DNA from: Methanospirillum sp. | Lineage (GTDB): Archaea; Halobacteriota; Methanomicrobia; Methanomicrobiales; Methanospirillaceae | Direction: 5' to 3' | DNA length: 64,000 bases | NCBI GenBank assembly: GCA_012728895.1 | Contig: JAAYEG010000065.1 | Span: forward strand, 7,538-71,537 | Shown: positions 35,135-59,038 of the stretch, in pieces | Position numbering within the stretch: position 1 is the first letter of the stretch | How the letters are laid out: each line of letters begins with the position of its first letter | Translations under genes and position numbers: made by a program | The notes under the pieces: model-generated | Seen by the model: only the letters and a program-made list of their open reading frames with translations | The model's database searches: none | What the model was told of the DNA's origin: nothing

Positions 35135-35186
35135 GCCTGCCCGGGACGCGGGCGGGAAACACGATCCACCACCGGAGGACTATCAC

Positions 35187-36023
35187 ATGAACAACCAGGG
35201 CTACTACACGGACAGGATCTGCATCGTAACGGGCGCGAACTCCGGCATCGGGTACGCGCTCAGCGAGGAACTGCTGAAGCGGGGCGCGACCGTCTACCTG
35301 CTCGGGCGGGACCCGGCGAAGGTCGCGGCCGCCGCCGGCAAACTCTCGTCGCACGGGGACCGGGTGCGGACCCTCGTCGCGGACGTGACGGACTGGGAAC
35401 AGGTGCGGACGGCGATCGAGGGCGCGGCAGCGGAGGCCGGAAGGCTGGACATGCTCTTCAACAACGCCGGCATCGGCGGCACCCTGCAGTTCGAGAAGGC
35501 GACCCTCGAGGACTGGAAGAAGATCATCGAGACCAACGTCTGGAGCGTGGTCTACGGCGTGCACGCGGCCTTCCCGATCATGCTCCGGCAGGGCTCGGGC
35601 CACATCGTGAACACCAGCTCGGCGGCCGGCATCGTCCCCCCGCCGTTCCAGGCGCTCTACTCGCTCACCAAGTTCGGCGTCACCGGCATGACCGAGTGCC
35701 TGCGGTACGAGTTCGCGGAGAAGGGGCTCTTCTTCTCGACGATCTGTCCGACCAACATCGCGACGCCCATCTTCCAGAGGTCGGCCGACGGCCCGGTGAA
35801 CGAGAAAGCGCCGATCCCCGACGACGCCTATCCCGTGGACCGGGCGGCCGTCGAGATCCTGGACGCGGTCGCCGAGCGGAAGGGGGTCATCGTCGTGCCC
35901 GAGGAGCCGGGCACGGCTGTCTGGCGGGGATGGGCCGCGGGAGACCCCGAGACGGAGGCGTATCTCATGCAGATGGCGCACGACCGCCGGGTCGCGTACG
36001 AGACGAAGGGGTCGTACTTCTGA
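35187..36023 (+). CDS. short-chain dehydrogenase/reductase (SDR), type a, copy 1
   Basis: TGANSGIGYA, NNAG and SSAAG...YSLTK (Ser-Tyr-Lys). Confidence 0.9.
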   Translation: MNNQGYYTDRICIVTGANSGIGYALSEELLKRGATVYLLGRDPAKVAAAAGKLSSHGDRVRTLVADVTDWEQVRTAIEGAAAEAGRLDMLFNNAGIGGTLQFEKATLEDWKKIIETNVWSVVYGVHAAFPIMLRQGSGHIVNTSSAAGIVPPPFQALYSLTKFGVTGMTECLRYEFAEKGLFFSTICPTNIATPIFQRSADGPVNEKAPIPDDAYPVDRAAVEILDAVAERKGVIVVPEEPGTAVWRGWAAGDPETEAYLMQMAHDRRVAYETKGSYF

Positions 36024-36042
36024 GGGCGGCGCTGGGGGGACC

Positions 36043-36897
36043 ATGGAGACCGGCGACTACTACCAAAAAAAGGTCTGCATCGTCACGGGCGCGAACTCCG
36101 GCATTGGGTACGCGCTCTCGGAGGAGCTGCTGAAGCGCGGCGCGACCGTCTACCTGCTCGGGCGCAACGCGGCGAAGGTCGCGGAGGCGGCCGGAAAGCT
36201 CGCGGCGCACGGGGACCGGGTGCGCACCCTGGTCGCGGACGTGACGGACGGGGCGCAGATGCGGGCGGCCGTCGAGGGCGCGGCAGCGGAGGCCGGCCGG
36301 CTCGACCTGCTCTTCAACAACGCCGGCGTCGGCCTGACCGTCCCGTTCGAGCGGATCGGCCTTGACGAGATGCGGGCGGTCATCGACGCCAACCTCTGGA
36401 GCGTGCTCTACGGGACGCACGCCGCCGTGCCGATCATGCTCCGGCAGGGCTCGGGCCAGATCGTCAGCACCTCGTCGATCGGCGGGCTCATCCCGGTGCC
36501 GTTCCAGTCACTGTACAACACGACCAAGTTCGCCGTCACCGGGCTCTCCGAGTCGTTGCGGTACGAGTACGCGGCGCGGGGGATCTCGTTCTCGGCCGTC
36601 TGCCCGTTCTTCATCGCGTCGGCCATCTTCAGCAAGGGCCTCGACGGCAGCACGGGCGACCAGGGGATCCCCGCCGGCGCCTACCCCGCGGACCGTGCCG
36701 CGGCCTTCATCCTCGACCGCGTCGCCGAACGGCAGGGGATCATCGTCGTGCCCGAGGAGCCGTTCCTCGGGCTCTGGCGGGAGTACGCGAACGGCGATCC
36801 GGGCATGGAGGCGTTCATGCTGGAGACCGCGAGGATGCGTGGGCAGCAGGTGGAACGGGGCGAGACGCCGACGGCGGTGCCGCCGCTCCCCCCATGA
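36043..36897 (+). CDS. short-chain dehydrogenase/reductase (SDR), type b, copy 1
   Basis: TGANSGIGYA, NNAG and SSIGG...YNTTK. Confidence 0.9.
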   Translation: METGDYYQKKVCIVTGANSGIGYALSEELLKRGATVYLLGRNAAKVAEAAGKLAAHGDRVRTLVADVTDGAQMRAAVEGAAAEAGRLDLLFNNAGVGLTVPFERIGLDEMRAVIDANLWSVLYGTHAAVPIMLRQGSGQIVSTSSIGGLIPVPFQSLYNTTKFAVTGLSESLRYEYAARGISFSAVCPFFIASAIFSKGLDGSTGDQGIPAGAYPADRAAAFILDRVAERQGIIVVPEEPFLGLWREYANGDPGMEAFMLETARMRGQQVERGETPTAVPPLPP

Positions 36898-36934
36898 CGC
36901 CGGGAGGCGGACGACAGGAGTGGAGGTGATCCGT

Positions 36935-37729
36935 ATGTTCGAGATCGATGATTCCCTCGACTACACCATGCCGGCGCACTTCGGCGGCACGGAGCTGGTG
37001 CCCGGGCACGTGGCCACGCAGCGCGTGACCGCCCTGGTGATCGCGTACGAGACCGACCGGGCGCTCCTCGAGGCGTTCGTCCCCCGTGAGTTCACGCTCC
37101 GCGCCCCGGAGGTGCAGGTGATGTTCGCCACGTTCGCCGGGGTCAACTGGCTGGCCGGCGCGCGGTACAACCTGGTCAACGTCTCGGCGCCCGTCCGGTT
37201 CGACGGGAGCAGGGACCACCTGGACGGCGATTACACGCTCGTCACCTGGGAGAACAGCACCGAGCCGATCCTGCGGGGACGGGAGCAGTCCGGGGTCCCC
37301 AAGGTCTACGCGGAGATCCAGGACCTGCGCGAGGTCGGGCCGTATTACTCCACGAACGCGAGCTTCGCGGGAAACACCTTCCTCTCCCTGGAGTTCGAGT
37401 CCGCGGGCCCGCTGGCGGGAAGCGAGCTCGGGGAGGTGCGGGCCGGGATGGCGACCCTGAACACCATCGGCTGGCGGTACATCCCCCGGATCAACGGCCC
37501 GGGAGCGGACCTCTCGCAGTTCGTGCTCTTCCCGCAGGGGCTGGACCTCGAGCGGGCCGAGGCGGGGGCGGGGAGCCTGCGCTGGACCGCGCTCTCCTGG
37601 ATGCAGCACCCGACGCAGCACCGGATCATCGAGGGCCTGGCCTCTCTGCCGGTGGAGCGGGTGACGCGGGCGGTGCTGGGGGAGGGGACCGGCGTGCTCG
37701 ACCGCCTTGGTTCGCGCCTGCTCGAGTGA
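36935..37729 (+). CDS. acetoacetate decarboxylase (ADC) family protein 2
   Basis: ATG after GGAGGTGAT. SAPVRFDGSRDHLDGDYTLVTWENSTEPILRGREQSGVPK. Collinear with 34316..35134. Confidence 0.8.
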   Translation: MFEIDDSLDYTMPAHFGGTELVPGHVATQRVTALVIAYETDRALLEAFVPREFTLRAPEVQVMFATFAGVNWLAGARYNLVNVSAPVRFDGSRDHLDGDYTLVTWENSTEPILRGREQSGVPKVYAEIQDLREVGPYYSTNASFAGNTFLSLEFESAGPLAGSELGEVRAGMATLNTIGWRYIPRINGPGADLSQFVLFPQGLDLERAEAGAGSLRWTALSWMQHPTQHRIIEGLASLPVERVTRAVLGEGTGVLDRLGSRLLE

Positions 37730-37778
37730 CCCGGCGCCGAAAACCACGAGAATGAACCAGAACTCAAAGGAGAATACA

Positions 37779-38615
37779 ATGACCAACCAGGACTACTACA
37801 AGGAGAAGATCTGCATTGTCACGGGCGCGAACTCGGGGATCGGGTACGCGCTCAGCGAGGAACTGCTGAAGCGCGGCGCGACCGTCTACCTGCTCGGACG
37901 CGACCCGGGAAAGGTCGCGGCCGCCGCCAAAAAACTCTCGTCGCACGGGGACCGGGTGCGCACGCTCGTCGCGGACGTGACGGACGGGGCGCAGGTGCAG
38001 CGGGCCATCGAGGGCGCGGCGGCGGAAGCCGGCCGGCTGGACATGCTCTTCAACAACGCCGGCATCGGCGGGACCATGCAGTTCGAGAAGGCCACGCTCG
38101 ACGACTGGAAAAAGTTGATCGATACGAACATCTGGAGCGTCATCTACGGCGTCCACGCGGCCCTCCCGATCATGCTCCGGCAGGGCTCGGGCCATGTCGT
38201 GAACACCAGCTCGGCCGCGGGCATCTTCCCTCCGCCGTTCCAGGCGCTGTACTCACTATCCAAGTTCGGCGTCACCGGCATGACCGAGTGCCTCCGGTAC
38301 GAGTTCGCTGAGAAGGGGCTGGCCTTCTCGACGGTCTGTCCCTCCAACATCGCGACGCCGATCTTCCAGAAGTCTCCCGATGGCACGGTCCACGACCAGC
38401 TGCCGATACCCGACGACGCCTATCCCGCGGACAGGACGGCCGTCGAGATCCTGGACGCGGCCGCGGAGCGGAAAGGGGTCATCGTCGTGCCCGAGCAGCC
38501 GGGTACCGATATCTGGCGGGGATGGGCGGCGGGGGACCCCGGGACGGAGGCGTTCCTGATGCAGATGGCGCACGACCGGCGCGTCGCGTACGAGACGAAG
38601 GGGTCGTACTTCTGA
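37779..38615 (+). CDS. short-chain dehydrogenase/reductase (SDR), type a, copy 2
   Basis: MTNQDYYKEKICIVTGANSGIGYA after AAGGAG. YSLSK. Most residues identical to 35187..36023. Confidence 0.9.
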   Translation: MTNQDYYKEKICIVTGANSGIGYALSEELLKRGATVYLLGRDPGKVAAAAKKLSSHGDRVRTLVADVTDGAQVQRAIEGAAAEAGRLDMLFNNAGIGGTMQFEKATLDDWKKLIDTNIWSVIYGVHAALPIMLRQGSGHVVNTSSAAGIFPPPFQALYSLSKFGVTGMTECLRYEFAEKGLAFSTVCPSNIATPIFQKSPDGTVHDQLPIPDDAYPADRTAVEILDAAAERKGVIVVPEQPGTDIWRGWAAGDPGTEAFLMQMAHDRRVAYETKGSYF

Positions 38616-38640
38616 GCGCGGCCCGCGGAAGGGGACGACG

Positions 38641-39474
38641 ATGGACGCGAGCGACTACTACCGGGAGAAGATCTGCATCGTCACGGGCGCGAACTCCGGC
38701 ATCGGGTTCGCGCTCTCGGAGGAACTGCTCAAGCGCGGCGCGACCGTCTATATGCTCGGGCGCGACCCCGCGAAGGTCGCCGGCGCCGCCGGAAAACTCT
38801 CGTCGCACGGAAGCCGGGTGCGGACCCTCGTCGCGGACGTGACGGAGCAACAGCAGGTGCAGGCGGCGGTCGAGGGGGCGGCGGCGGAGGCCGGCCGGCT
38901 CGACATGCTCTTCAACAACGCGGGGATCTTCCGGCCCCAGCTCTACGAGACGGCCACGCTCGGGGACTGGCAGACCATGATCGAGACCAACCTCTGGAGC
39001 GTGATCTACGGCGTCCACGCCGCCCTGCCGATCATGCTCCGGCAGGGCTCGGGCCACGTCGTGAACACCGCGTCGGTGGCCGGCCTGGACCCGTTCCCGA
39101 TGCAGGAGATCTACAACACCACGAAGTACGCGGTCGTCGGGCTCTCCGAGAGCCTGCGGTACGGGTTCGCGGAGAAGGGGATCGCCTTCTCCGTGATCTG
39201 CCCCGGCGACATCGCGACCCCGATCTACTCCAAGGTGACCGACCGCGAGGGCCGCGGGACAGAGACCCCCGCCCACGCGTACCCCGCCGATGCCGCGGCC
39301 ACGTACTCCCTCGACCGGGTGGCGGAGCGGAAGGGGATCGTCGTCGTGCCCGAACAGCCGTACACCGACCTCTGGAGGGGGTACGTGGTGGGAGATCCGG
39401 GCGTGGAGGCCATGCTCGTCCGGATGGCGCACGACCGCAGGGTGCTGCTCGAGACAAGGGGGACGTATATCTGA
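38641..39474 (+). CDS. short-chain dehydrogenase/reductase (SDR), type b, copy 2
   Basis: TGANSGIGFA, NNAG and YNTTK. Confidence 0.9.
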   Translation: MDASDYYREKICIVTGANSGIGFALSEELLKRGATVYMLGRDPAKVAGAAGKLSSHGSRVRTLVADVTEQQQVQAAVEGAAAEAGRLDMLFNNAGIFRPQLYETATLGDWQTMIETNLWSVIYGVHAALPIMLRQGSGHVVNTASVAGLDPFPMQEIYNTTKYAVVGLSESLRYGFAEKGIAFSVICPGDIATPIYSKVTDREGRGTETPAHAYPADAAATYSLDRVAERKGIVVVPEQPYTDLWRGYVVGDPGVEAMLVRMAHDRRVLLETRGTYI

Positions 39475-39523: not shown

Positions 39524-40834
39524 ATGAACGACGATACGACGCACCGGGACCCTGGCGGTCCGCACACACTCCAGTCCTACGCACAGCACAGGGCCGAGGT
39601 CGACCTCTCGATCGAGGTCGTGCTCCTGCTCGTCGGCGGAGTCTTCTTCCTGATCTTCGGCCTCCTCCTCTTTCCGATCGGGACGGGAGCGCTCCCCTAC
39701 AGCGAGGGCGCCATGTACGGGCTCTTCGTGGTGCTCGTCTCGATGCAGATCATCACCATGGGCAAGACCCCGTTCGGCGACCTGCTCCGGTCCTGGATCG
39801 TGGTAATCGCCGGGATCGTCACGGCCATCGTCGGGACGCTCGCCATCTTCTACCCCGGGGAGACGACCGGGCTGATCCGCGTGCTGGCCGGCGCGATCGT
39901 CCTTGTCACGGGGGCGCTCGGGCTCGTCCAGCTCGTCACCGCAGAGGATCGTGCACGGACCTGGCTGCGCGTCCCGGGGGTGCTGCGGCACCTGGCCGTC
40001 GCCTGCGCCGCCGTGTACGCCCTCGAGGTGGTCCTCGGGGTCATCACGCTCGTTCCTGGGGTCGTGCCCGTGGGGCTCACGGCGGGGATCTGCGTCGCCT
40101 TCGGCGCCGCCCTCGTGTACCTCGCCTGGGCGATCCACTCGGTCACGGCCCGGTACGCCCCCGAACCGGCGGAGGAGAAGGCGGCGGCGACGGGGGAGAG
40201 CCGGAGGGAGCGCCGCCCCCGCGGCCTCTTCGGAGAGGCCGGGCTCTCGGTCGGCGACTCGTTCAACGTCTTCCAGGGCGTCCTCCTGCTCCTCCTCGGG
40301 TGCCTGGTCCTCTTCATGATCCTGGGCGCGATACCGGCCTTCAACGCCGACGGCCAGCTCGGCCTGCTGCTGGTCCTGACCTCGCTCCAGATGCTCGCCC
40401 TCGGGCAGGTGGTGGGGAGCACGGTGACGCGCTCCTGGCCGCTCGTCGCCGCCGGGCTCGCCTTCGCCGCGATGGGGATCGTCTCGTGCATCGTCCCGGG
40501 GGTCCTCTCCTCGGTGATCTCGCCGCTCCTCGGGGTCCAGAACATCATCACCGGGGTGGTGCTCCTGGGCACCCAGGTGATCGGGCCGACCCTCTTCGGC
40601 ATCCGTCACCCCCCGGCCGAACCGGTGGCGATCCCCCCGCTCGTCAAACGACTCCTGCTCGTCCTCGCGGCGACCGGGATCGTGGCGATCCTGTTCGGCC
40701 TGAACATGCTCGCGCCGTTCCTCCTGCCTGGCCTGCTGGGGGTGGTGGCCTTCGCACTCTTCCTCCCGATCCTGATCGTGGTCATGGGGCTTCTGACCCT
40801 GGTAACGGTGCAGATCACCCGGAAACTGGGGTGA
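39524..40834 (+). CDS. polytopic membrane protein with internal duplication (two ~200-aa hydrophobic halves joined by a charged linker)
   Basis: The two halves share a pattern: ...GALPYSEGAMYGLFVVLVSMQIITMGKT... versus ...AFNADGQLGLLLVLTSLQMLALGQV.... The linker is EPAEEKAAATGESRRERRPRG. A DUF308/HdeD-like guess is from memory only. Confidence 0.7.
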   Translation: MNDDTTHRDPGGPHTLQSYAQHRAEVDLSIEVVLLLVGGVFFLIFGLLLFPIGTGALPYSEGAMYGLFVVLVSMQIITMGKTPFGDLLRSWIVVIAGIVTAIVGTLAIFYPGETTGLIRVLAGAIVLVTGALGLVQLVTAEDRARTWLRVPGVLRHLAVACAAVYALEVVLGVITLVPGVVPVGLTAGICVAFGAALVYLAWAIHSVTARYAPEPAEEKAAATGESRRERRPRGLFGEAGLSVGDSFNVFQGVLLLLLGCLVLFMILGAIPAFNADGQLGLLLVLTSLQMLALGQVVGSTVTRSWPLVAAGLAFAAMGIVSCIVPGVLSSVISPLLGVQNIITGVVLLGTQVIGPTLFGIRHPPAEPVAIPPLVKRLLLVLAATGIVAILFGLNMLAPFLLPGLLGVVAFALFLPILIVVMGLLTLVTVQITRKLG

Positions 40835-44073: not shown

Positions 44074-44826
44074 TCAGTCGTTGAACCTCCGGTACAGCAG
44101 GTTCGCCGCGAACTGGAAGACGAGGATGAAGACGAGGAGGAGGCCGACGTCGACCGCCGGCCCGAAGTGGGCTTCGCCCGTGAAGCCTGCCCGGATCAGG
44201 TCGCTGCCGTAGGTCAGCGGCGAGAGGAGCGCGATGAACTGGCCGGCGGACGGGAGCTGGGAGAGCGGGATGAAGACGCCGGAGATGAAGATCAGCGGGA
44301 GCCGCACCAGGTTCAGCATGGACATGATGTCGCCCGGGCTCTCGGTCGGGTACGCGGCGAAGAGCGTACCCATGGTCGAAAAGCAGAAGGCCGTGAGGAC
44401 GACCCCGGCCACGAGGAAGGCGGGCCCGACGATCCCCGCCCGGAAGACGGCGAGGCCGGCGGCCAGCGGCACGAGGGCGATCCCGATGCTGTAGAGGAAC
44501 CCGCTCAGGCTCTCGCCCAGGACCACCGCGTGGAGCGAGATCGGGGCCGAGAGGAGGCGGTCGAAGGTGTTCATGCGCCGCTCGATCGGGATGGAGACCG
44601 GCTCGATCGAGGAGGCCGAGAAGAGGATGGTGATCGCCACGAGGCCGGGGACCAGGACCGTCGGCTCGGCCGGCCGGCCGACGGCGAACGCGAGGAACAT
44701 GAAGAGCGGAAAGAGCATGCCCGAGACGATGATGCCCGGCTTGAGGTACCAGATCAGGATGTCCTTCTTCGCGATCGCCCAGGCCGCGGCGAGCTCGGTC
44801 GAGACCTGCCCGAACCACCCCTCCAC
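44074..44826 (-). CDS. ABC-2 type transporter permease
   Basis: 250 aa with 6 hydrophobic helices. The start lies 1 nt after the upstream ATPase stop. Confidence 0.85.
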   Translation of the reverse strand: MEGWFGQVSTELAAAWAIAKKDILIWYLKPGIIVSGMLFPLFMFLAFAVGRPAEPTVLVPGLVAITILFSASSIEPVSIPIERRMNTFDRLLSAPISLHAVVLGESLSGFLYSIGIALVPLAAGLAVFRAGIVGPAFLVAGVVLTAFCFSTMGTLFAAYPTESPGDIMSMLNLVRLPLIFISGVFIPLSQLPSAGQFIALLSPLTYGSDLIRAGFTGEAHFGPAVDVGLLLVFILVFQFAANLLYRRFND

Positions 44827-44827
44827 C

Positions 44828-45784
44828 TCAGTCAGCGGTCGTCACCCCCTTCGTCCGGACGTCGAGCCCGGTCAGGCGGATGAAGACGTCCTCGAGGCTC
44901 GGGCCGCGGGTGTTCACGCTGATGACCCGGACTCCGGCGCGGGGCGCGAAGGCCATGACCTCCTCCAGCACCCCGGGCGGATCCTCGGTGATGAGCCGGA
45001 ACTTGTCGCCCTCCTTGCGCACCTCGCGGACGCGGGAGAGCGCCGCCAGGTCGTCCGCGGCCACCCGCCCGCCCGGGTGGAAGGCGACCTCGACCGACTG
45101 GACGGACTGGATCGTCTCCTTGAGCCGCTCGGGGGAGTCGATGGCCGCGATCCGGCCGTGGTCGATGATGGCCACCCGGTCGCAGGTCAGGTTCGCCTCC
45201 TCGATGTTGTGGGTCGTGAGGAAGACCGTGACCCCGTCCTCGTTCAGCCCCCGGATCACGTCCCGGATGATCAGGTTGCTCTGGACGTCCAGGCCCGAGG
45301 TCGGCTCGTCGAGGAAGAGGAGGCGGGGGGAGTTGACCAGGCCCATGGCGAGCGTGAGCCGCCGCTTCATCCCCTTCGAGAAGCCCCTGGTCCTGTCGTG
45401 TTGCCGGTCGGCGAGGTCGAAGACCTCGAGGAGCTCGGCGCCGCGCTTCTCGCGCTCGCGCCGGCCGACGCGGTAGAGCTCGGCCGCGAACATCAGGTTC
45501 CGCCAGGCCGAGAGGTCCGTGTAGATGTTCGAGGTCTCGTGCACGATCCCCATCTGCCGCCGGGCCGCGACCGTCTCGCGTACGATATCGTGGCCGAAGA
45601 TGCGGGCCGTCCCCGATGTCGGCGCCGTGATCCCGGTCAGGATACGGATCGTCGTCGTCTTGCCGGCGCCGTTCGGGCCGAGGAAGCCGAAGGTCTCGCC
45701 CTCGCCGACCGTGAAGGAGACGTCAGAGAGGGCCCGGAGGTCGCCAAAACGCTTCGAGATCCCGAGGGTTTCGATCGCATGCAT
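44828..45784 (-). CDS. ABC transporter ATP-binding protein (DrrA/daunorubicin-resistance-like)
   Basis: Walker A GPNGAGKTT, signature FSKGMKRRL, Walker B LLFLDEPTSGLD. A C-terminal accessory domain is present. Confidence 0.9.
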   Translation of the reverse strand: MHAIETLGISKRFGDLRALSDVSFTVGEGETFGFLGPNGAGKTTTIRILTGITAPTSGTARIFGHDIVRETVAARRQMGIVHETSNIYTDLSAWRNLMFAAELYRVGRREREKRGAELLEVFDLADRQHDRTRGFSKGMKRRLTLAMGLVNSPRLLFLDEPTSGLDVQSNLIIRDVIRGLNEDGVTVFLTTHNIEEANLTCDRVAIIDHGRIAAIDSPERLKETIQSVQSVEVAFHPGGRVAADDLAALSRVREVRKEGDKFRLITEDPPGVLEEVMAFAPRAGVRVISVNTRGPSLEDVFIRLTGLDVRTKGVTTAD

Positions 45785-46313
45785 GACAGGGCCAATCTCA
45801 CTCTTTCACGAGCACCTGCTAAGGGAAATAACATTCGACGGCGACATTGGCCGTGGTCTCCCTGCTGCGGGAAGCCTTCGTGACCGGAACCGTGGCAGCC
45901 GAACCGGATCGCGTGGGTCCAGGAGTCCGCGACGACGGCGCCGGGACGGGCGCCGGACCGCGCCTCGAGTACGGCCTTCGGCCGCACGGGGAGCCGTCCG
46001 GGTCCCTCGGAAGCGGCGTGACGTGGCCCGGCGGGGCGTCCGGGGCGTCCGCGCCGGCGTGTTCGGGAGAAGCGTCCCGTTCGCGAGGCAGAGCAGGAAG
46101 CCGTCGATCCCGCCCACGACCCGGTCCGACGCCTCGATGACCGCGTCCCCGTCCACGGATGCGCTCGCGTCGGTCCGGGCGACCGGGTCAAGGAGCGCGC
46201 CGGCGGGGTCGCCGGCGGGGACGAGGACCGGCGTCCCGAGGGGGAAGAGCGCCGAGGACGAGGTCGCGGATGGCTCCCCGGCCGGCGGACTGCGGAATTT
46301 GCTCTCCTGTCCG

Positions 46314-48083
46314 TCATCTCCCCTGCATCCTCTCGATGGCCCGTTCCAGCCCTGCAATCTCTCGCTCCCGCAGGACCGAGAGGTCGCGGCTCGCCTCCTC
46401 GTGCCGCCCCCGCTCCGCCACGGCCGCCGCGATCGCGCCGTGCGTCGCCAGGACCGCGTCGGCGAGCCCCCCGTCGAGCTCCGACGCGAAGGCCCGGAAG
46501 GCCGCGTCCAGATCCTGGATCATCGACCAGCGCAGGTTCTCGACGTTCGCCCGGACGAGGTTGCCGGCCTGCCGCCCGAGCCGTTCCCGGGCCCGCCGCT
46601 CGCGCAGCCGGCGCGGGAGGGCCCGCTCCATCACCTCGGCCGGGATCGGGACCAGCGGCGCCATCGAGAAGTCTCGCCGGACCCACCAGGCCCGCGACCC
46701 CTGCTCGAGCCGGTGCCCGGTCCCGGGCACGTGGTACGGCACGTCGAAGAGCTCGGCCGCGGCCGCCCGCACGGATCCGATCAGCCGCGCCGCGTTCTCG
46801 TGGTGGACCCGCAGGCGCCGGCCGAGCTCCTCGTCCAGCATCCCGGCCGTCGCCTCGATCTCCAGGGGAAACTCCTCGGCGACGGCCTCGGCCATGGCTT
46901 CGACCGCCGCCGCCTCGCTGCCGCTCTCCGCGAGTGCCGCGTCCGCGACCTCGACCAGGCGGGCCCCGTACCGCTCCCGGAGCGCGGCCGCGTGCGTCTC
47001 CACGAGCTCGGCCATCCGCTTCTGCTCCCCCGCGAGCATGTCCTTCGCGTACCGCCGCTGCTGCTCGGCCTCGGCCAGGGCCGCGTCGAACCGGGCGCTC
47101 TTCTCCTCCAGCTCCTCGCCCGGCATCGCGAGCGCCCAGAGCGAGAGCCGGAGCGCGAGCAGGACTTCGTCCGCGACCTCGCCCGCACGCTGCCGGACCG
47201 AGGCCTCGAGGACCTGCTGCTTCTCCTCCGCGAGGAAGGCGAGGAGGCGGTCGGCGATCCCGGCGCAGCCGCTCGCCCGCCACTCCGCCTCGTCGCCGCG
47301 CTCCCGGGCCGCGAGCCCGCGGCGGGCCGAGACCGGGTAGATGGGCACGTCCGAGGGAAGGTCCGCCTGCTCGGCGAGCACCCGCCGCAAAAAGCCCGTG
47401 GCGGCCGCGGCCTCGTCGTCGGAGAGGTAGTCGACCTTGTTCAGCACGAAGAAGAGGCGCGGGACACGGCCCTGCACCTTTTGGAGGAACTCGACCTCGA
47501 CCGCGGTGATTGGCGGGTCGGCCGAGAACAGGAAGAGGGCCGCGTCGCACTCTGCGAGATACGCCATCGTGGTCGCGGTATTGTGCGCGTACGTCGAGCC
47601 GATCCCGGGCGTGTCGATCAGCACCACGCCGTGCGCCAGCGCGGGTGACGGGTGGAGCACCTCGACCCCGGCCACGCCGAGCCGGTTTCCCGGGTTCGCC
47701 TCCTCCGTGACGTACCGGGCGAGGACGGCCGCGAGGGCCGCCGCGTCGGGGACGGCCGGCACCTCGTCGGTCCTGCCATCAGAGAAGTCGACCCGGACCT
47801 GCCGCATCGACCCCGCGCGGATCCGGGTCGGGATGGCCGTGAGCGGCACGACCGAGCTCGGGAGCACGGCCTCGCCGAGCAGGGCGTTCAGGAGCGTGGA
47901 CTTTCCGCGCTTGAACTGGCCGAGCACGGCCAGGTGAAACGATCCCGCGTCGAGCCGGAGGTCGAGCGCGTCGAGCCGGTCGGCCGCGGGTTCGAACTCC
48001 GGGCCGCAGGAACGGACGAGGGCGGCGAGACCAGCCAGGTCGGCCGCGAGCGAAGGGGGGTCTCTCGATGGTATCGGGTCCAC
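46314..48083 (-). CDS. dynamin-family (bacterial dynamin-like) large GTPase
   Basis: G1 GQFKRGKST, G3 LIDTPGIGS, G4 FVLNKVDYL, then a ~350-aa Ala/Glu/Arg-rich helical stalk. Start set at GTG 48083 after GAGGAGA. The alternative ATG at 48209 adds 42 aa. Confidence 0.8.
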   Translation of the reverse strand: MDPIPSRDPPSLAADLAGLAALVRSCGPEFEPAADRLDALDLRLDAGSFHLAVLGQFKRGKSTLLNALLGEAVLPSSVVPLTAIPTRIRAGSMRQVRVDFSDGRTDEVPAVPDAAALAAVLARYVTEEANPGNRLGVAGVEVLHPSPALAHGVVLIDTPGIGSTYAHNTATTMAYLAECDAALFLFSADPPITAVEVEFLQKVQGRVPRLFFVLNKVDYLSDDEAAAATGFLRRVLAEQADLPSDVPIYPVSARRGLAARERGDEAEWRASGCAGIADRLLAFLAEEKQQVLEASVRQRAGEVADEVLLALRLSLWALAMPGEELEEKSARFDAALAEAEQQRRYAKDMLAGEQKRMAELVETHAAALRERYGARLVEVADAALAESGSEAAAVEAMAEAVAEEFPLEIEATAGMLDEELGRRLRVHHENAARLIGSVRAAAAELFDVPYHVPGTGHRLEQGSRAWWVRRDFSMAPLVPIPAEVMERALPRRLRERRARERLGRQAGNLVRANVENLRWSMIQDLDAAFRAFASELDGGLADAVLATHGAIAAAVAERGRHEEASRDLSVLREREIAGLERAIERMQGR

Positions 48084-49100
48084 AGGTGTCTCCTCGGAAG
48101 GGGTAGGAGTTATCAGCGGGACCCGCGGTTGACGGTGAACTCCATCACCGATCGTACTCAGGCGTGCGGCAACGTCAATCTTCGCGCCGGAGCCGGTCGG
48201 AACCATCCCGGGACCCTCTGCGCAGGGCCCTGTGCGGCCAGCCTGGAGGGGGGGGGGCGATCCGCGAGATCGCGAAGGCCCGGTCCCTCGATTGTTTCGA
48301 GCTCCCCGAGCAGGGAGAGCCCGGCGAGGACGTGGCCGGCCAGGAAGACTCTCGCAAACGAGCCGCCCGTTCCCCGGAGAAACCGGGTGAGTGCGACCCT
48401 TGCGCGGTCGGCCGCGACAGGCCCCCGCCGCCATCGGGCGACGAGGGCGTGCCGGGTATCGGCCGCGTCGGCTCGGGGAGCCGCCAGAAGCGGTTCCCGC
48501 CCACGCCGCAGCCGTTGCGGCGGCACACCGGGGGACCGCCGGCTGTCCGGGGAGAAGGGGCAGCGTGCGTGCCCCGGCAGGAGTCACCCGCCTCGCGGGG
48601 GTCCCGGGGCGGACCCCATCGCCTCCGGTGACCGATGGCGCGGTACCGGGACAAGGCTGTCCCCCTGCTGGAACGCCCTCCTCGCCTGGTGATGATGAAC
48701 GTGCAATCGGCGCCGAGGGGGCCGTGGTCACCATGAGGTCGACCCGTCACGGGCACGCTCCGCCGGAAGAGATCGCGACAGGCCTTGAGGGCGTCCCTGT
48801 CCTGATCCCGGCCCCCGGCATGACGATCGAAAACCCTGGCCCGGGGGATGCCGGCGCATGAACGAGGGGTGACGGCATCGATGAGAGGAAGAAGATCCCT
48901 GCTACCGCCTGGAGCAGGTGAACCGTCCCCTCGCGCCCTCATCGCGAGTCGGTCACTCGAGGGGCTCCGCCTCGCGACAGGCGGTACCAGCGACGCGATA
49001 CGGAGGAGCGCCGATGCGCGCCCTGCCGATCCTCACGTCGATGGGATCCGGCCCACGGATGGAGAAACCTACAAGCGTACTGACGTTGTGGGGATCTACG

Positions 49101-52832: not shown

Positions 52833-53510
52833 GCGAGTACCGTCTCTTTTTCCCGGCGGAACCCTGCCGGGCTCTGCCGGGCGGACGGAGGCAGTGAGAT
52901 GGGGCCTGAGAATCCGGATCCCGTTCCTCCCGCATTCGGTCGTGTCTTCCCGAACGATCGGGGGCCGTCCCGGTGCATCGTGCTGCCCGGGGGGGTGGGC
53001 GAGGTGCATCGCGGTGGCGCGGCGCGGCAATGAACACCGGCGGGGAGTCCGGTCCCGCTCTCGCGGCGGCGGCCCCGCCGATCCTTTAACCCGCACCCGC
53101 CCCTGCTGCCGGCTCCCCTTCCCCGTCTCGTCGCCGGCACCGGGCTGCCGAGTGAAGTCGCCTCCCGGTGCTGCAGACCAGGGGCGCAGGCCCGCCGAAC
53201 CGGGCCCCCCGGTCCTCTGGCGGCTCTCCGTGCTCCAGGCCCTGCCTGGCGTTCCCGGGACCATCCCCGTGGCATCCACACGCTCGCGCCGGGCTCCCTC
53301 CCGGGCCTGGTGATCGCAGGGGTTCCTTCCGTGAACGGCATGCTCGTCTTCGCCCTGGCCCCCGTCCTGCACGCGCTCTCGCGGTTGTCGGGCCGGGCGG
53401 AGTGACCGCGCGTACACTCTGTTCCCACCGGGCAGAGGCATGACCGCCGGAGAACGGCGCGATCGGTGGAGAGGCGGCGATCCGGTGGCGGGAACCCGGC
53501 GGTCCCCTTC

Positions 53511-55913
53511 CTACCAGACCTCCCGGCCGCCACCGAAGTGCGCCGTGAAGACCTTCTCCGGGTCCCCCGTCTCCTCGACGTTGGGGATGGCCCTCCCGTC
53601 CAGGGACCCGTAGCCCTCCGGCAGGTAGAGCGTGAAGTCCAGGGGGGCCGCTCCCTTCGAGACGGCCTCGAGGTAGTTCGCGATCGCGCAGGGGTCCGAG
53701 ATGGAGGCGTCCCGGCTCCCCGTGTAGCCGCCGCCGTTGGTGGTCTTGTCGGCGTACTGGAAGGCGTCCGCATAGAGGGACGGGGCGGAGAACTCCGCCA
53801 GCGACTGCCCGCCGTAGATGACCGACATGAATAAGTACCAGGAGGTGAACTCCCAGCTCGGCCACATCCCCTGGCCCCACCGCATACCGGGGACGAAGGG
53901 ATCGTCGAAGACGGCCTCGTTCCTGGAGAGCTGGAACGCCGTTCCGGCGAGGGTGACCAGGTGGTACTCCCGGCTGAAGTCGTGTCCGCCGGCGTTCCAT
54001 TCGCGGCGGGTCGGCTTGATGAAGAGCCGGGCTGTCTGGTAGAAGTGCCCCGAGAGCGGCCCGTGCTCCTCGCGCATCTGCATCTCCAGGGCGCGTGCCA
54101 GGATGTAGAACGCGATCGTCCAGTACCCCTTCGTGCCGTTCTCGTCGTAGTCGATCATCCCGTCGCCGTTCCCGTCGAAACCCTCCATGAACGCCGCGAG
54201 GAGCGAGGAGCCGGTCAGCCTGTCGTGCGCCTCCGCGTAGCTCAGGAGGGTCCGCTGCATGTCCCAGAGCATGCAGGAGAGGTTGTGATACATCGTCCCG
54301 GTCATCAGTTCGAGGAACCGGTCGTCCTCGACCCTGCCGAGGTGGCCGTCGAGCGAGGCGAGCGGCGATTCCGTGACGGTGTCCCAGCCCGCAACCCGGT
54401 ACTGCTGCCGCCCCATGCCCCGCCGTTCGGCGTACCGGTAGAGGTTGTACCGGAAGAGCGGCGAGTCGAGCCCCTCGTCCGTGACGATCTGCGTGCCCTC
54501 CACCCGCGCCACCGGGACGTGGCGGACGAACTCCGTGCTCCAGCCGTTCTCCTCCCGGAGCCGGATCCCCTCGGCCATCGGAACGGTCTTGAAGCAGTAC
54601 CGGGCCGAGAAGAGGTCGAGGGCGACCGGGTCGAGGGAGGACCAGAGGTAGCCCTCGGGGCACCGGACCGCGATCCCCTCCGGGTTGTGGTTGAGGTTGA
54701 TCATGTCGATCGAGTCCGAGACGTGGACCATGAAGACCTGCTGGGCCTGGGTCGCGCGGATGACGTCCGCCTGCGTCCCGGGCATCCCGTCGTTCTTCAC
54801 CGCCCGGTACGTCCCGTCCTCGTTCCGCTGCGGCTCGTCGGTCTCCTCGTCGATCTCGACCACCCAGGGCATGTGCGGCAGCCGCGCCTTGTAGGTCGGC
54901 AACGTCGACGAGGGGAGGGCGTACTTCCAGCTCTGCCCCCCGTGCCCCCCTCCGGCCGGGCACTGCACCGGGTAGAGGCCGATCCCCAGGTTCTTGATCG
55001 CGTTCGTTAAAAGGTCCTGCGCGTGGATCTTCAGCTTCGGGACGTTGACCAGGACGCAGCCCGGGTAGTCCGCGAGGTCCGAGGGGTTGGCCGGGTCCCC
55101 GCCGACGATCACCTTGTGCAGGGTGACCTCCCGGAAGTTCGCCCCGCCGGGGACGGGGACGGTCCTCCCGCGCGAGGCGTCGTCCCCCACTCGGTTCAGG
55201 TCGTAGACCATGAGCCGGCCGGTCGCCCTCCCCGGCGGGAGGTAGGTGCCGTCCACGCTCTCCCCGTACCCGCTCATGGGGTCGTCGTCGTGGTCGGACG
55301 GGTGACGGTCGGCGAGGTACCGGCGGACGAAGTAGAACCCCCAGCCCCCGTAGAAGTCGCCGCTCCGCCCCTCGAAGACCGCCTCGGCGGTGATCCGCCG
55401 GCCCGTGTCCCGGCTCCAGAGGAACTCCCAGACGTTGACCGATGTGGATGCCTCCCCGAGCGCCATCTGGTGGTACGTGATGCCGAGCCGATCGTGGAAC
55501 CACCGCATCAGCGCGGCGATCACCGTCCAGTCCGTGCAGATGGGGGCGCCGAGGTCCTCGCCGTGGGTGACGGAGTGGATCGCCGTGGGGCCGACCAGGT
55601 TCGGCTTGAAGACCAGCCGTTTGCCGTCCCGCACCTCCGACCGGACCCGCTCGGCGAACCCGGTCTCGCGGTCGAGGGCCGAGAGGGCCAGGTCGACATG
55701 CGCATGGATGTAGTCGACCCGCTGCACGATCTCCGCCCATGCGGCCTCGTCGCCGTCGTCGATCGCCCTCTGCAGCAGCCCGGGGATCCCCGCGTACGCG
55801 CGGGCCGGCTCCATCCTGGCCCCGCAGACGGCCGAACCGTCGTGGTCGAGCCTCCGTCTTCCCACCGGCGATTCCACCGTCGTGTCCCTCGCACTCGCGT
55901 CGTCTGCGGTCAC
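53511..55913 (-). CDS. large (~800 aa) uncharacterised protein: N-terminal DUF362-like region, long unknown middle, canonical EF-hand loop
   Basis: GKRLVFKPNLVGP (DUF362-like KPNlv strand). FDGNGDGMIDYDENG is an EF-hand loop DxNxDGxIxxxE. Strong GC3 coding signal throughout. Start set at GTG 55913 after GGAGG; alternatives are ATG 55814 and ATG 55952. Confidence 0.7.
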   Translation of the reverse strand: MTADDASARDTTVESPVGRRRLDHDGSAVCGARMEPARAYAGIPGLLQRAIDDGDEAAWAEIVQRVDYIHAHVDLALSALDRETGFAERVRSEVRDGKRLVFKPNLVGPTAIHSVTHGEDLGAPICTDWTVIAALMRWFHDRLGITYHQMALGEASTSVNVWEFLWSRDTGRRITAEAVFEGRSGDFYGGWGFYFVRRYLADRHPSDHDDDPMSGYGESVDGTYLPPGRATGRLMVYDLNRVGDDASRGRTVPVPGGANFREVTLHKVIVGGDPANPSDLADYPGCVLVNVPKLKIHAQDLLTNAIKNLGIGLYPVQCPAGGGHGGQSWKYALPSSTLPTYKARLPHMPWVVEIDEETDEPQRNEDGTYRAVKNDGMPGTQADVIRATQAQQVFMVHVSDSIDMINLNHNPEGIAVRCPEGYLWSSLDPVALDLFSARYCFKTVPMAEGIRLREENGWSTEFVRHVPVARVEGTQIVTDEGLDSPLFRYNLYRYAERRGMGRQQYRVAGWDTVTESPLASLDGHLGRVEDDRFLELMTGTMYHNLSCMLWDMQRTLLSYAEAHDRLTGSSLLAAFMEGFDGNGDGMIDYDENGTKGYWTIAFYILARALEMQMREEHGPLSGHFYQTARLFIKPTRREWNAGGHDFSREYHLVTLAGTAFQLSRNEAVFDDPFVPGMRWGQGMWPSWEFTSWYLFMSVIYGGQSLAEFSAPSLYADAFQYADKTTNGGGYTGSRDASISDPCAIANYLEAVSKGAAPLDFTLYLPEGYGSLDGRAIPNVEETGDPEKVFTAHFGGGREVW

Positions 55914-57255
55914 GATGCCTCCGTTGTTGCGTGATTGGCCGACATCCAGCATAAAGCATGACGATCGCCGTCGTGGGACGGGCCGGGAACGAAGGGTGTG
56001 TACGACCCGGTCCGGGACGAGAACACCGCGAAGGCAGGATCCTGTCCGGGCCAGGACCCGGATAGGGGACTTCCGGGGTGCCGGTATTCTTCGACGGAGA
56101 GGTCCCCCGGGGCCGGACGCGGGGCCGTTCATGCACGGCTCCACCCCGCTCACGGCCACGTGCGCCGCCGGCAGGGAGGGGGCTGGTTGACGAGCTTCCC
56201 GGGAGGGTTCGAGGTTCTCGCGCCGGCGCTGGGCGTCTCCTTCACCTCGCTGCGCGGGATCGACCGGATGGCCGGCGGGTCCAGGAACCCGGTGCAGGTC
56301 CAGCTCCCGGCGAGGCTCGCGGGAGGGCGTGACCGGCTCGACGGGCGCCCATCCCCGGCGGGCTGAAGGGTTCCGGGATCCAGACGCTCCTCGCCGATGC
56401 CCAGGACCCCGCGTCCGGCCCCCCGCACCACTCCACCGACGCGAGCCACGACGGGTCGGCGTACCCGGGGATGGGCGCCCGGAACCCGGTGGAGTCGCCG
56501 GAGCGGGATCCACGGCCGTTCGGGGAGGCACCGGGGGCCGACCTCAGCCAGTGCGTCCTCCACCCGGAGGACATCCGGGCCGGGCGGGCCCGGAGCGGCG
56601 AGGGAGATACCCGGTGGACGGAACTCACCAGGGAGGAGAGCCCGGTGCAGCGAGCAGATCATCGAGGCGCTCGCAGACCCGCCCGTTCGCGGGATGCGGC
56701 CGGCCTCGATGGCGATGGGGATCAGGGGCTGAAACCGGGCCGGGGGTGGCTCCCCGAACAGCGGGGCCCGCCGCCGGGACCATCGAGACGACGCAGGCTG
56801 TCCCCTAGGCCGTTATCCGATGCCCCCTCGCCATGCGTTCGAACGGATGCGATCCGCCTTCTCGGAAGTGCCGGACCGGATCCGGGCGCGTGGCTCCGGG
56901 CCGGTCCGCGCAGCCGGCCACGAGGACGGTCCGGGGCAGGATGGAGGCCGGGGCGGCCCCCGTGCCGAGAGAGGCAGGTGTGCATCGCGGGGATAGCATG
57001 AACACCCCGGTGACGGAGGGCGGAGCGGGGGGTCGCAGGTGGAGAGCGGATCGGCCCGGCGGAGGTACTGCTCCTCCCGGCCGCGGCAGGCCCCGTAGAG
57101 GTTCACGACGCCCCGGCAGGGGTGCGCGGCCTTCGTGAAGGTGGTTCCGGGTCACCGCAGGGGGAGGACTGCATCGATGATCGCTCCTCCTGCTCCTCCC
57201 GCCCGATCCCCCGCGTGTTCAAAAGACTGAGAAATCTTCGGTGACCCGGGGGGCA

Positions 57256-58128
57256 TCAGTCACAGACGGAAAACGAGGGGGAGGACGCGGAACCCCGTCG
57301 TTCTGGTTTCGTTGCGCTGAGCTGGATGCTCGCGATGAACTCCCCGAGGCCGGCCACCAGCCCGGGCGGCAGGTTCATATCGGTCATGATTGCCCTCGCC
57401 GTCGGGTCGTTTGTCATGCAGTCGAGCGTCATCGGGCTCTCGCCGAGGATCCGCACCTCGTGGAACCCGGCGTCCCTCACCAGGTCGAGGTAGTCCTGCC
57501 GGCCGATCGCCCCCGAGAGGCACCCGACGTACGCCCCCACCGACTGCCTGACCCCGTCGGGGAGCGGCCGGAGCAGGACCGTGTCCGAGATCATCAGCCG
57601 CCCGCCGGGTTTGAGGACGCGAAAGGCCTCGCGGAAGACCCGGGCCTTGTCCGGCGCAAGGTTGATGACGCAGTTCGAGACGATCACGTCGACGGACCCG
57701 TCGGCCACCGGCAGGTGCTCGATCTCGCCGAGCCGGAACTCGACGTTGGCGTACCCCCCGGCCCTCGCGTTCTCGCGGGCCCTCGAGAGCATCTCGGCCG
57801 TCATGTCCACGCCGATCACGCGCCCATCGGGTCCGACGCGGCCGGCGGCGAGGAAGCAGTCGAAGCCGGCGCCGGAGCCCAGGTCGAGCACGGTCTCGCC
57901 GGGCTGCAGGGAGGCGAGCGCGATCGGGTTGCCGCAACCGAGCCCGAGGTTGGCCCCGGCTGGGACGGCCTGCAGGTCCTCGTCCGCATAGCCGAGCCGC
58001 CGGCTGATCTCGTCTTGGACGGGGGCGCTCTCGCATCCGCAGCCGGACGGGCCGCAGCAGGAGCCCCCGCTCCGGGCGATCTCTCCGTAGCTCTTCCGCA
58101 CCATCCTTTTCAGCTCGTCGTCGGTCAT
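57256..58128 (-). CDS. arsM: arsenite S-adenosylmethionine methyltransferase
   Basis: [13 protein letters not shown]...GCGCE Cys-rich N-terminus. [14 protein letters not shown] motif. [16 protein letters not shown]. Confidence 0.85.
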
Positions 58129-58415
58129 GTCGACACCTCGTCGAGCAGGGCATCCTTCACCAGCGGTCCCACCACGCTCTTCACCGGGTCGTCGAGCCGG
58201 TCGGCCCTGACCAGCATCAGGCAGCAGGTCTCGCCGCCCGTCTCCCAGCCGATCACCGCGAGCTTGCTGCCGGGGCTGATCCCCGCCCGCACCCGAAGGT
58301 CCTTCGGGAGGAGAAGCTGCCCGCGCTCGTCGATCGTCACGATCGCCTCGAGCGAGCAGCGGCCGGCCGGACCGGGAGCTGAACAGCAGGGTTCGTCCGT
58401 TCTGACCATGTCCAT
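58125..58415 (-). CDS. AbrB/SpoVT-type small DNA-binding-domain protein with two vicinal Cys pairs
   Basis: [27 protein letters not shown] (looped-hinge-helix pattern). CC occurs at residues 10-11 and 64-65. The stop overlaps the arsM start (ATGA). Confidence 0.75.
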
Positions 58416-58479: not shown

Positions 58480-58582
58480 ACGATCCCGATCCACCGTGAC
58501 CGCGCCATGGGCGATACCGGGGGATATCCCGATCGGGGTGTCGGTGACCGGTATAAAACCGGTGAGGCCGAACGAGAGAGGC

Positions 58583-59038
58583 ATGAGTACGGACCGTCCC
58601 GAGAGAGCCGTCGCCTGCCTCGATGCCGGGTTCTCGTGCGCCCAGGCGATCTGCCAGGTCTGCGGCCCGGAGTTCGGCCTCTCACGCGATACGGCCAGCC
58701 GGATCGCGGCGGGACTGGGCGCGGGAATGGCCAGGACCGACGATATCTGCGGCGCCGTCTCGGGCGCGGTGCTGGTCCTCGGGCTCGCGTACGGAGGCAA
58801 CCTCGAGGACGCCGTACCCGCGCGGGAACGGACCTACGCCGCTGTTCAGAAGTTCATCGCGGCCTTCACGGCGGCGCAGGGTTCCGTCTCGTGCACCGGG
58901 CTGCTCGGGTATAATCTCGGCGACCTGGACGAGTTCGCAGCGGCACGGCAGGCCGGCATCGTCAGGCGAGTCTGTCCGGCCATGGTCCGGGCCGCCTCGG
59001 AGCTCCTCGAGGAGATGCCGGGCCAGCCCGGGGAATGA
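58583..59038 (+). CDS. C_GCAxxG_C_C family redox protein
   Basis: [17 protein letters not shown]...[24 protein letters not shown]...SCTGLLG...VCPAMV. Confidence 0.75.

Follow-up and report, generated by a model that had tools for sequence, protein, structure and literature searches.

What might a protein do that carries the signature motifs of DUF362 but, at 800 amino acids (aa), far exceeds the 200-position Pfam model of that domain? The question is raised by a gene on the minus strand of a contig labelled Methanospirillum sp. (JAAYEG010000065.1), of which we analysed a stretch of 64 kb with a GC content of ~69%, hereafter the window. An initial annotation of the gene had described an orphan of unusual size, the latter rightly, and had left it as an enzyme or scaffold of unknown function. 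Here we argue that the giant DUF362 protein may be a cytoplasmic enzyme, the signature component of a horizontally mobile, substrate-inducible module that would act on small carbonyl compounds together with a protein of the acetoacetate decarboxylase (ADC) fold and classical short-chain dehydrogenases/reductases (SDRs). To this overall picture we give an even chance of being correct; any one specific reaction deserves much less confidence than that.

A conserved gene linked to an ADC-family neighbour

Overlapping spurious long open reading frames (ORFs) abound on both strands between 53 and 56 kb, and only one ORF there has the codon-position GC of a real gene (0.67, 0.52 and 0.90 at the first, second and third positions). 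It is the ORF with a coding signature that had been singled out from the start, on the minus strand and ending at 53511. Long ORFs in other frames or on the opposite strand (53086-56136, minus, 1016 aa; 55023-55934, plus; 53961-55010, plus) were rejected as by-products of high GC. Note that antisense ORFs form apparently conserved clusters across related loci (clusters 1, 3 and 5), mirroring the real gene.

While the stop end of the extent first given to the gene (53511-55952) stands, its ATG start does not. Translation most likely begins at a GTG at 55913, 39 nt (13 codons) inside that ATG, because a Shine-Dalgarno-like GGAGG (55918-55922, minus strand) lies 4 nt 5' of the GTG and the N-termini of 28 homologues align there. 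This gives a coding sequence at 53511-55913, TGA stop included, for a protein of 800 rather than 813 aa. GGAGG- or GGAG-like motifs also precede the partner genes in the window. The sequence CATGCTTTATGCTGG (55945-55958, minus strand), 35-45 nt 5' of the GTG, holds both a TTTAT and the discarded ATG; the TTTAT could be an archaeal TATA box, which would suit a short leader with a Shine-Dalgarno site.

The protein is no orphan. In a search of 5.8 billion proteins 962 related clusters came up at E<=1e-3, and the family is widespread in anaerobic archaea and bacteria. Among the best 120 of the 962, nearly all are full-length (~800 aa) and 55-86% identical to the window protein; they include Methanosarcina horonobensis, M. 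barkeri, Methanobacterium, Methanoregula and Desulfobaccales, and carry the NCBI name "DUF362 domain-containing protein". To sample loci, one genome per GTDB species was scanned, which yielded 126 confirmed loci, the best 80 of which were kept. On the archaeal side these 80 come from Methanomicrobiales, Methanosarcina, Methanobacterium, Bathyarchaeia and the Asgard lineages Odin-, Hod- and Promethearchaeota; on the bacterial side from Desulfobaccales, Desulfomonilaceae, Syntrophaceae, Dehalococcoidia, Atribacteria and Synergistales, along with the clostridia Clostridium ragsdalei, C. carboxidivorans and C. muellerianum. The phyletic map that the initial annotation had called for thus takes in methanogens, Asgard archaea, Bathyarchaeia, Thermodesulfobacteriota, Dehalococcoidia and Clostridium. 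Full-length relatives, sulfate reducers, syntrophs and acetogenic clostridia among them, span 40-86% identity, and archaeal and bacterial members are ~55-69% identical over their full length. By contrast with this breadth across lineages, a profile search of 1.84 billion representatives at 50% identity found only 373 matches, mostly fragments, and none of the 150 profile matches listed is an ordinary short DUF362 protein. As judged from these searches the family is compact and sharply bounded, and highly divergent from ordinary DUF362 proteins.

Conservation within the family is pronounced. Across 80 members, 124 positions are at least 97% conserved and a further 77 are 90-97% conserved (201 in total); the window protein keeps 197 of the 201, departing at I66V, L101V, T374N and E581G, where the family median is five deviations. 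The reading frame is whole in 80 of 83 related loci, the other three being partial copies on short contigs, so that the interruption in related strains that might have undone the gene is not seen. The ratio of non-synonymous to synonymous substitution rates (dN/dS) is 0.28 against an 86%-identical orthologue, and two independent assemblies from different samples agree to 100% over 4.9 kb of the locus. From these comparisons, the window gene looks intact and under purifying selection. The contig with that orthologue (CAYWVY010000102.1, locus L007) is labelled "uncultured Methanospirillum sp."; its taxonomic label is doubtful, because its GC content is 68.8%, like that of the window, and Methanospirillum genomes lie near 45%.

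Having defined the family, which genes keep its company? ORFs called over ~20 kb around the family genes, at 83 loci of which the window is one, were clustered all-against-all. Antisense artefacts aside, the commonest neighbour is a protein of ~268 aa that Pfam assigns to the ADC family (28 loci), followed by a classical SDR (20 loci), a small protein with four transmembrane segments (11 loci) and a DUF308-like membrane protein, cluster c10 (8 loci). If one takes the relatives that are at least 50% identical and whose loci extend at least 3 kb beyond the gene in either direction, 24 in all, an ADC-family gene lies within 5 kb in 22 and an SDR in 15. The neighbours of orthologues, to which the initial annotation had pointed as a check, therefore set this close subfamily apart from ordinary DUF362 proteins. 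In the literature searched we found no paper on the giant DUF362 family or on a DUF362-ADC pairing.

The composition of the module varies. In Firmicutes the minimal unit is the giant DUF362 gene with an ADC-like gene 19-50 nt further on, in surroundings that are otherwise unrelated; an ORF upstream is LysR-type-like, as judged on its N-terminal sequence alone, and a candidate regulator. At the other end, an operon in Desulfomonilaceae encodes, in order, a sigma54-PAS activator, an SDR, the giant DUF362 protein, a DUF308-like protein, a reductase of the old yellow enzyme (OYE) type with FMN/FAD, a second SDR, the ADC-like protein and a 3-hydroxyacyl-CoA-dehydrogenase-like protein. Sensor kinases (cluster c11) and a PocR/PAS kinase adjoin the module elsewhere. 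Pairwise identities of the giant DUF362 and ADC proteins are correlated (Mantel r = 0.84, with none of 2000 permutations as high), a correlation to which shared phylogeny contributes.

The partner proteins and their chemistry

In the window itself, the intact partners lie on the plus strand, 13-19 kb from the giant gene (tblastn). The first ADC-fold gene (34316-35134; Pfam ADC 6.8e-30) encodes a protein that shares 54-71% identity with the ADC proteins encoded beside related DUF362 genes, and is followed by two classical SDR genes (35187-36023 and 36043-36897; Pfam adh_short 2e-53 and 5e-52), whose products are up to 86% identical to the SDR beside the orthologue on contig L007. A second ADC-fold gene (36935-37729; Pfam ADC 2.3e-35) and two further SDR genes (37779-38615 and 38641-39474) repeat the arrangement, so that 34316-39474 is a tandem duplication of an ADC-SDR-SDR unit: six genes, all starting with ATG and most with a GGAGG-like Shine-Dalgarno site. 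The first and third SDRs both end in ETKGSYF. Beyond the second unit lies a gene for a DUF308-like polytopic membrane protein (39524-40834; Pfam DUF308 6.3e-6), which shares 42-56% identity with its c10 counterparts beside DUF362 genes at 8 loci. Upstream of the first, a gene for a PAS-domain protein (32774-34117, plus strand; PAS families 2e-26) has a weak helix-turn-helix match that stays below the Pfam cut-off (HTH_IclR, 19.3 bits); its position makes it a candidate for regulating the partner cluster. That the giant gene has a second copy, intact or decayed, near the 34-41 kb cluster was considered and rejected, since tblastn finds one locus in the window.

What reaction might the ADC-fold partner catalyse? 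In a profile alignment, Lys123 of the second copy falls on K115 of 3BH2 (C. acetobutylicum) and K116 of 3BGT (C. violaceum), and this Schiff-base lysine, within the motif GRExxGxPK, is conserved in 34 of 36 partners. The partner shares the lysine with true ADC and differs from it elsewhere. Of two active-site residues of the C. acetobutylicum enzyme, Glu76 and Arg29, the position of the first is occupied by a nearly invariant Leu in the partners (YNL as opposed to YTE), and the region of the second is variable and its alignment uncertain. On the NCBIfam model for true ADC (NF002614) copy 1 scores 43.6 bits where 150 are required, and copy 2 gives no match at E<=1e-10. We therefore rejected a true acetoacetate decarboxylase, on the Leu and on the score far below the cut-off: the partner is probably something else, predicted from its conserved residues to be a lysine-imine enzyme acting on a ketone or a 2-oxo-acid. 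Among solved structures its close kin is 3CMB, deposited by structural genomics for a Methanoculleus marisnigri protein; copy 2 matches it at E 1.4e-98 and the family profile at 1.4e-123, and we found no biochemical function for it in the literature searched. Other branches of the ADC-like superfamily are aldolase-dehydratases or cyclases.

The SDRs are, by sequence, generic classical SDRs: those of the window come nearest to 3-hydroxybutyrate and acetoin/butanediol dehydrogenases and score below every curated NCBIfam cut-off. One might nonetheless read the module as a route through ketone bodies to acetone. Imagine that the SDRs were 3-hydroxybutyrate dehydrogenases, that the partner turned acetoacetate into acetone, and that the giant DUF362 protein supplied 3-hydroxybutyrate or acetoacetate from an ester, an oligomer or a CoA derivative. 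The best PDB matches of the SDRs are indeed D-3-hydroxybutyrate dehydrogenases (E 3.6e-33), the partner belongs to Pfam ADC, and 3CMB was deposited as an acetoacetate decarboxylase; moreover, interconversion of secondary alcohols and ketones is known in Methanomicrobiales, Methanobacterium, C. ragsdalei and C. carboxidivorans. However, this scenario has to contend with the Leu in place of Glu76, the variable Arg29 region and the low NCBIfam score of the partner, with SDRs that fall short of both 3-hydroxybutyrate dehydrogenase models among the others, and with Firmicute modules that have no SDR at all. We consider it improbable.

Architecture of the giant protein

How, then, is the giant protein itself built? 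Pfam DUF362 (PF04015), whose cut-off is 24 bits, scores 29.8 bits (E 7.5e-7) over aa 287-437 (54603-55055, minus strand), which correspond to model positions 101-199 and contain NVPKLKIH, KNLGIG, SLDxVALD and an insertion of ~50 residues. The KPNLV strand, the first signature motif of the DUF362 core, is where it had first been noticed, at aa 103-107 (55593-55607, minus strand); K103, P104 and N105 are conserved in at least 97% of the 80 family members. Note that HMMER aligned model positions 101-199 only, so that the N-terminal half of the model has no statistical match although KPNLV is present and invariant. The DUF362-like region, placed at the N-terminus in the initial annotation, does include the KPN at aa 103 but is not confined to that end, and the core extends over roughly aa 99-445, with large insertions. 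Throughout the giant family the KPN strand, K-x-H, KN-x-G and SxDxVAxD are conserved, and, like ordinary DUF362 proteins, which belong to Pfam clan CL0471 ("DUF362-like superfamily"), the family tolerates insertions within the domain, which in ordinary members can nest Fe-S motifs (PMC7955657). In contrast, the window protein has eight Cys and no ferredoxin-type Cys motif.

An AlphaFold2 model built from a 29-sequence alignment (mean pLDDT 83.4, pTM 0.85) bears out the idea of a multidomain protein, its secondary structure suggesting five regions: beta-hairpins and long helices at the N-terminus (aa 1-95), the alpha/beta core with the DUF362 motifs and a low-confidence insertion at ~305-375 (aa ~99-445), an all-beta domain that resembles a beta-sandwich (aa ~464-535), a helical domain (aa ~545-725) and a small alpha/beta C-terminal part (aa ~743-800). 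All but the core are additions relative to ordinary DUF362 proteins, and neither the typical single-domain size nor the nested Fe-S architecture of DUF362 is matched by this 800-aa, five-region protein. Because the core modelled alone (aa 96-450) comes out worse (pLDDT 65), it is probably not an independent folding unit. As first reported, no signal peptide or transmembrane segment is found, the maximum 19-residue Kyte-Doolittle mean being 1.06.

Searches for a characterised relative came back empty. Foldseek comparison of the full model with 350,000 PDB chains gave nothing significant (best E 0.3, with SIS-domain and esterase alpha/beta folds at a probability of at most 0.07), and neither did comparison of the core model with the PDB (best E 0.04). 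Searching the PDB sequences, whether the query was the single protein or the family profile, gave chance-level matches (an F-box/WD protein), besides those to calcium-binding proteins described below. The giant protein matched no family in an NCBIfam scan and no defence system in PADLOC. Full-length homology to a characterised enzyme family, a possibility raised at the outset, was thus not found in Pfam, NCBIfam, the PDB sequences, Foldseek or the literature searched.

The helical domain holds a 12-residue loop, DGNGDGMIDYDE (aa 580-591; 54141-54176, minus strand), with D, N, D, G, I, D and E at positions 1, 3, 5, 6, 8, 9 and 12. It conforms to the canonical D-x-[DNS]-x-[DNS]-G-x-[ILV]-[DSTN]-x-x-E, as do the corresponding segments of 71 of the 80 family members, and DxNxDGx[ILV][DSTN]xxE turns up in 5e-5 of shuffles of the window protein. 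Variation across the family is itself EF-hand-like (N or D at position 3, D or N at 5, D, T or S at 9, almost always E at 12), weak PDB profile matches to troponin C and calcium-binding proteins fall exactly on the loop, and in the AlphaFold2 model helices 571-579 and 597-614 flank it, the loop there being longer than canonical and of intermediate confidence (pLDDT 70-77). With the EF-hands of calmodulin and troponin C the loop of the window protein shares the ligand positions, Gly 6 and Ile 8; unlike them it is unpaired, no second EF loop being found in the window protein, and embedded in a large enzyme-like helical domain. The full PROSITE pattern PS00018 is failed by the window protein, which has Asn at position 13, and passed by 32 of 80 relatives, or by 75 of 80 if position 13 is ignored. 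The loop had been called a textbook EF-hand; its 12-residue pattern is indeed canonical, but neither the full PROSITE pattern nor the Pfam EF-hand thresholds are reached. Since it is single, unpaired and carries that Asn, DGNGDGMIDYDE is best read as an EF-hand-type loop and not as a classical EF-hand domain. The suggestion of calcium binding keeps its place, in that the family-wide pattern predicts a structural Ca2+ site.

If so, could the protein have no catalytic role and instead bind Ca2+ as a scaffold or sensor around which the ADC-fold enzyme and the SDRs are organised? The conserved loop would suit that role, membrane-protein neighbours could hint at assembly, and Foldseek permits no catalytic assignment. 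It would be unusual for a scaffold, however, to keep the DUF362 motifs and ~200 near-invariant positions, with many charged or polar residues, from Asgard archaea to clostridia; the EF loop is single, and exported paralogues occur without ADC or SDR partners. We regard a scaffold as very improbable. Of the two roles originally left side by side, an enzyme is the more likely, because the ~200 positions near-invariant across domains of life are mostly polar or Gly and include the DUF362 motifs.

These paralogues form a second tier of 795-1087-aa proteins that match profile positions ~20-705. Several begin with RRxFLK signals for twin-arginine translocation (Tat), with Pfam TAT_signal at 25.4 bits and Pfam DUF362 at 39-56 bits, and the EF-type loop is still recognisable in them. 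Sequences P0134-P0157 and P0257, all from outside the window, are sister giant DUF362 proteins of this kind, uncharacterised exported versions with Tat signals and an EF-like loop.

Tat export would also suit a pre-assembled cofactor, and this brings in another scenario, hydride shuttling as in LarA. Here the core would hold a nickel-pincer nucleotide or a related, tightly bound redox cofactor through conserved Lys and His, a hydroxy-acid would be racemised, epimerised or internally oxidised, and the keto form would pass to the ADC partner. DUF362 and the LarA N-domain (DUF2088) do belong to the same Pfam clan, CL0471 (PMC11770544, PMC7955657), both are alpha/beta with conserved Lys and His, and the core of the giant protein has invariant K103, K295, H297, K307 and H409. 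A 2026 discovery paper indicates that scaffolds for the nickel-pincer cofactor are still being found; its subject is aldo-keto reductases, not DUF362 (PMC13524815). Set against the scenario, sequence and Foldseek searches show no similarity: there is no Lar_N/DUF2088 Pfam match even at E<=1, no LarA chain in phmmer or hmmsearch against the PDB at E<=10, and no LarA in the Foldseek top 50 for either the full or the core model. Nor does larBCE appear in the neighbourhoods examined; general clustering of the 80 loci, in which no Lar-specific model was run, revealed no recurrent LarB/C/E-like family, the recurrent neighbours being ADC, SDR, membrane proteins, regulators, a hydrolase, an OYE-type reductase and an acyl-CoA synthetase, and none of the Pfam-scanned window genes matches a family recognised as LarB, LarC or LarE. 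As regards the fold, the one link between the two is their clan membership in the literature. We give a LarA-like mechanism little credence.

The locus in this genome and the proposed module

The flanks of the gene had been described as poor in ORFs, and gene-free stretches do lie on both sides (52833-53510 and 55914-57255). They are not empty DNA, however. The 1.3-kb upstream flank contains, over about half its length, a decayed copy of the ADC-fold partner (~56100-56746, plus strand), homologous to the ADC partners of other loci at E down to 3e-26 (tblastn, blastx). It and the DUF362 gene point away from each other, an arrangement shared with Methanosarcina and other archaeal loci. The ADC copy is a pseudogene, split over two frames near 56348-56351 and broken by stops, with a catalytic motif that reads GLKGSGIQT where GRExxGxPK is expected. 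An assembly error behind the frameshift is unlikely, given two assemblies from different samples that are 100% identical over 4.9 kb, and given the mutated motif. Downstream, weak evidence points to the remains of a DUF308-like membrane-protein gene, namely of its C-terminus (53191-53425, plus strand), which run towards the DUF362 gene and match the c10 proteins of L007, L011 and L023 (blastx E 1e-4 to 1e-9); nucleotide homology to L007 extends ~330 nt beyond the DUF362 stop codon, and in this closest relative an intact DUF308-like gene is convergent on the giant gene. With an ADC pseudogene upstream and a DUF308-like relic downstream, the flanks are, on sequence grounds, decayed remains of an ancestral module. 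Together with the tandem duplication this suggests that partner genes were recently amplified elsewhere in the window while the copy beside the giant gene decayed. Such decay is not unique to the window, because at L003 (Methanosarcina horonobensis, CP009516.1) the SDR beside the giant DUF362 gene has been cut to a 59-aa adh_short fragment (12946-13125).

Is the giant gene itself following its neighbours, a remnant on its way to loss whose role has gone? It is enclosed by long non-coding flanks with gene relics in them, its dN/dS against the closest orthologue is 0.28, and two of its residues are at odds with the family: the conserved EF-loop Glu (E581) is Gly, and Pro replaces a Cys at aa 429 that is nearly invariant in the 29 closest relatives, a change that the window protein shares with its closest relative, P0002. 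Yet the frame is unbroken over 2.4 kb, identical in independent assemblies and preceded by a good Shine-Dalgarno site, the deviations from conserved positions are fewer than the family median, and intact paralogues of the partners are present in the window. There is thus only a small chance, in our estimation, that the gene is such a relic.

The window reads as archaeal, its proteins including aEF-2, an archaea-specific DUF2124 protein and a class II aminoacyl-tRNA synthetase of the Asp/Lys/Asn type. With the 86%-identical orthologue on a contig of similarly high GC, this points to a high-GC archaeon akin to Methanomicrobiales as the source, one that turns up repeatedly in JGI metagenomes. Upstream of the locus are genes for an ArsM/UbiE-like SAM methyltransferase with a Cys-rich N-terminus (57256-58128, minus strand), preceded by a 96-aa ORF (58125-58415, minus strand; AbrB/SpoVT-like by eye, with no Pfam match on record), and for a divergent C_GCAxxG_C_C protein (58496-59038, plus strand); none of the three is conserved beside the family in other genomes. 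Further away, a gene for a dynamin-family GTPase (46314-48746, minus strand; Dynamin_N 1.9e-28), a type of protein uncommon in archaea, adjoins an ABC-2 type transporter pair (44074-45805, minus strand).

Returning to the proposed enzyme, we envisage an alpha/beta DUF362 core (KPN, NVPKxKxH, KNxGxG, D..N..H, SxDxVAxD) that was expanded by insertions and is followed by the beta-sandwich and the helical domain, in which the EF-type loop would serve as a structural metal site. The partner would form a lysine Schiff base with its ketone or 2-oxo-acid, and the classical SDRs, presumed NAD(P)-dependent, would act alongside both. Because a Schiff-base partner and SDRs occur together, the module as a whole would convert a small keto or hydroxy compound or acid. 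The step of the giant protein itself probably needs no soluble cosubstrate, an idea favoured because its close paralogues are exported by Tat and end up where ATP, NAD(P)H and CoA are lacking; it would then be of the lyase, hydrolase or isomerase type, or would employ a tightly bound metal or cofactor. Inducibility by the substrate is suggested by the adjoining regulators, namely the candidate LysR-type protein, the sensor kinases, the PocR/PAS kinase, the sigma54-PAS activator and the PAS protein of the window. In the present genome, where the ancestral neighbours have decayed, intact partners are found in the duplicated ADC-SDR-SDR cluster, 13-19 kb away.

Several observations weigh against this account. 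First, the giant gene lies at least 13 kb from the intact partners, and the partner copy that adjoins it is dead. Second, among relatives below 50% identity an ADC gene lies within 5 kb in none of the 16 loci with adequate flanks; their neighbours are instead an alpha/beta-hydrolase (seven loci), an OYE-type reductase and an acyl-CoA synthetase, so that the ADC partnership may be limited to one subfamily. A divergent ADC-like cluster does adjoin four of these less similar genes, on short contigs. Third, the Pfam EF-hand models stay below their cut-offs at the loop (EF-hand_1 12.2 against 25.4 bits, EF-hand_5 10.9 against 25.9), and, with no likeness to a solved structure in Foldseek, there is no active site to be proposed by analogy. 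We infer the chemistry from gene context alone, and the libraries searched give no function for the giant family or for DUF362 as a whole. Finally, a dN/dS of 0.28 is not very low and leaves room for relaxed use in this lineage.

Keeping these points in mind, one may go further and ask whether the family represents a new enzyme class, with a fold outside the PDB, in which a tightly bound metal or organometallic cofactor and a lysine-Schiff-base partner carry out demanding, cosubstrate-independent small-carbonyl chemistry in anaerobes of the Wood-Ljungdahl type, namely methanogens, acetogens, sulfate reducers and Asgard archaea. Among the candidate reactions would be the making or breaking of a C-C bond and the internal transfer of a hydride on a ketone or keto-acid. 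We think this rather unlikely; if true, it would provide the first function for the whole DUF362 superfamily. Annotation gains in that the start codon is corrected, a pseudogene is recognised and the "orphan" label can be dropped. The family already has a database name yet is uncharacterised, and what distinguishes it is its giant size, the EF loop, the link to an ADC-fold protein and its absence from the PDB. This giant branch is among the most conserved uncharacterised proteins of methanogens, Asgard archaea, Bathyarchaeia, sulfate reducers, Dehalococcoidia and syngas-fermenting clostridia. Its function is approachable, in that the genetic partner is clear, a relative of that partner (3CMB) has been solved, and hosts such as Methanosarcina barkeri and Clostridium carboxidivorans are cultivable and tractable, and it could reveal an unrecognised route for carbonyl compounds in anoxic habitats.

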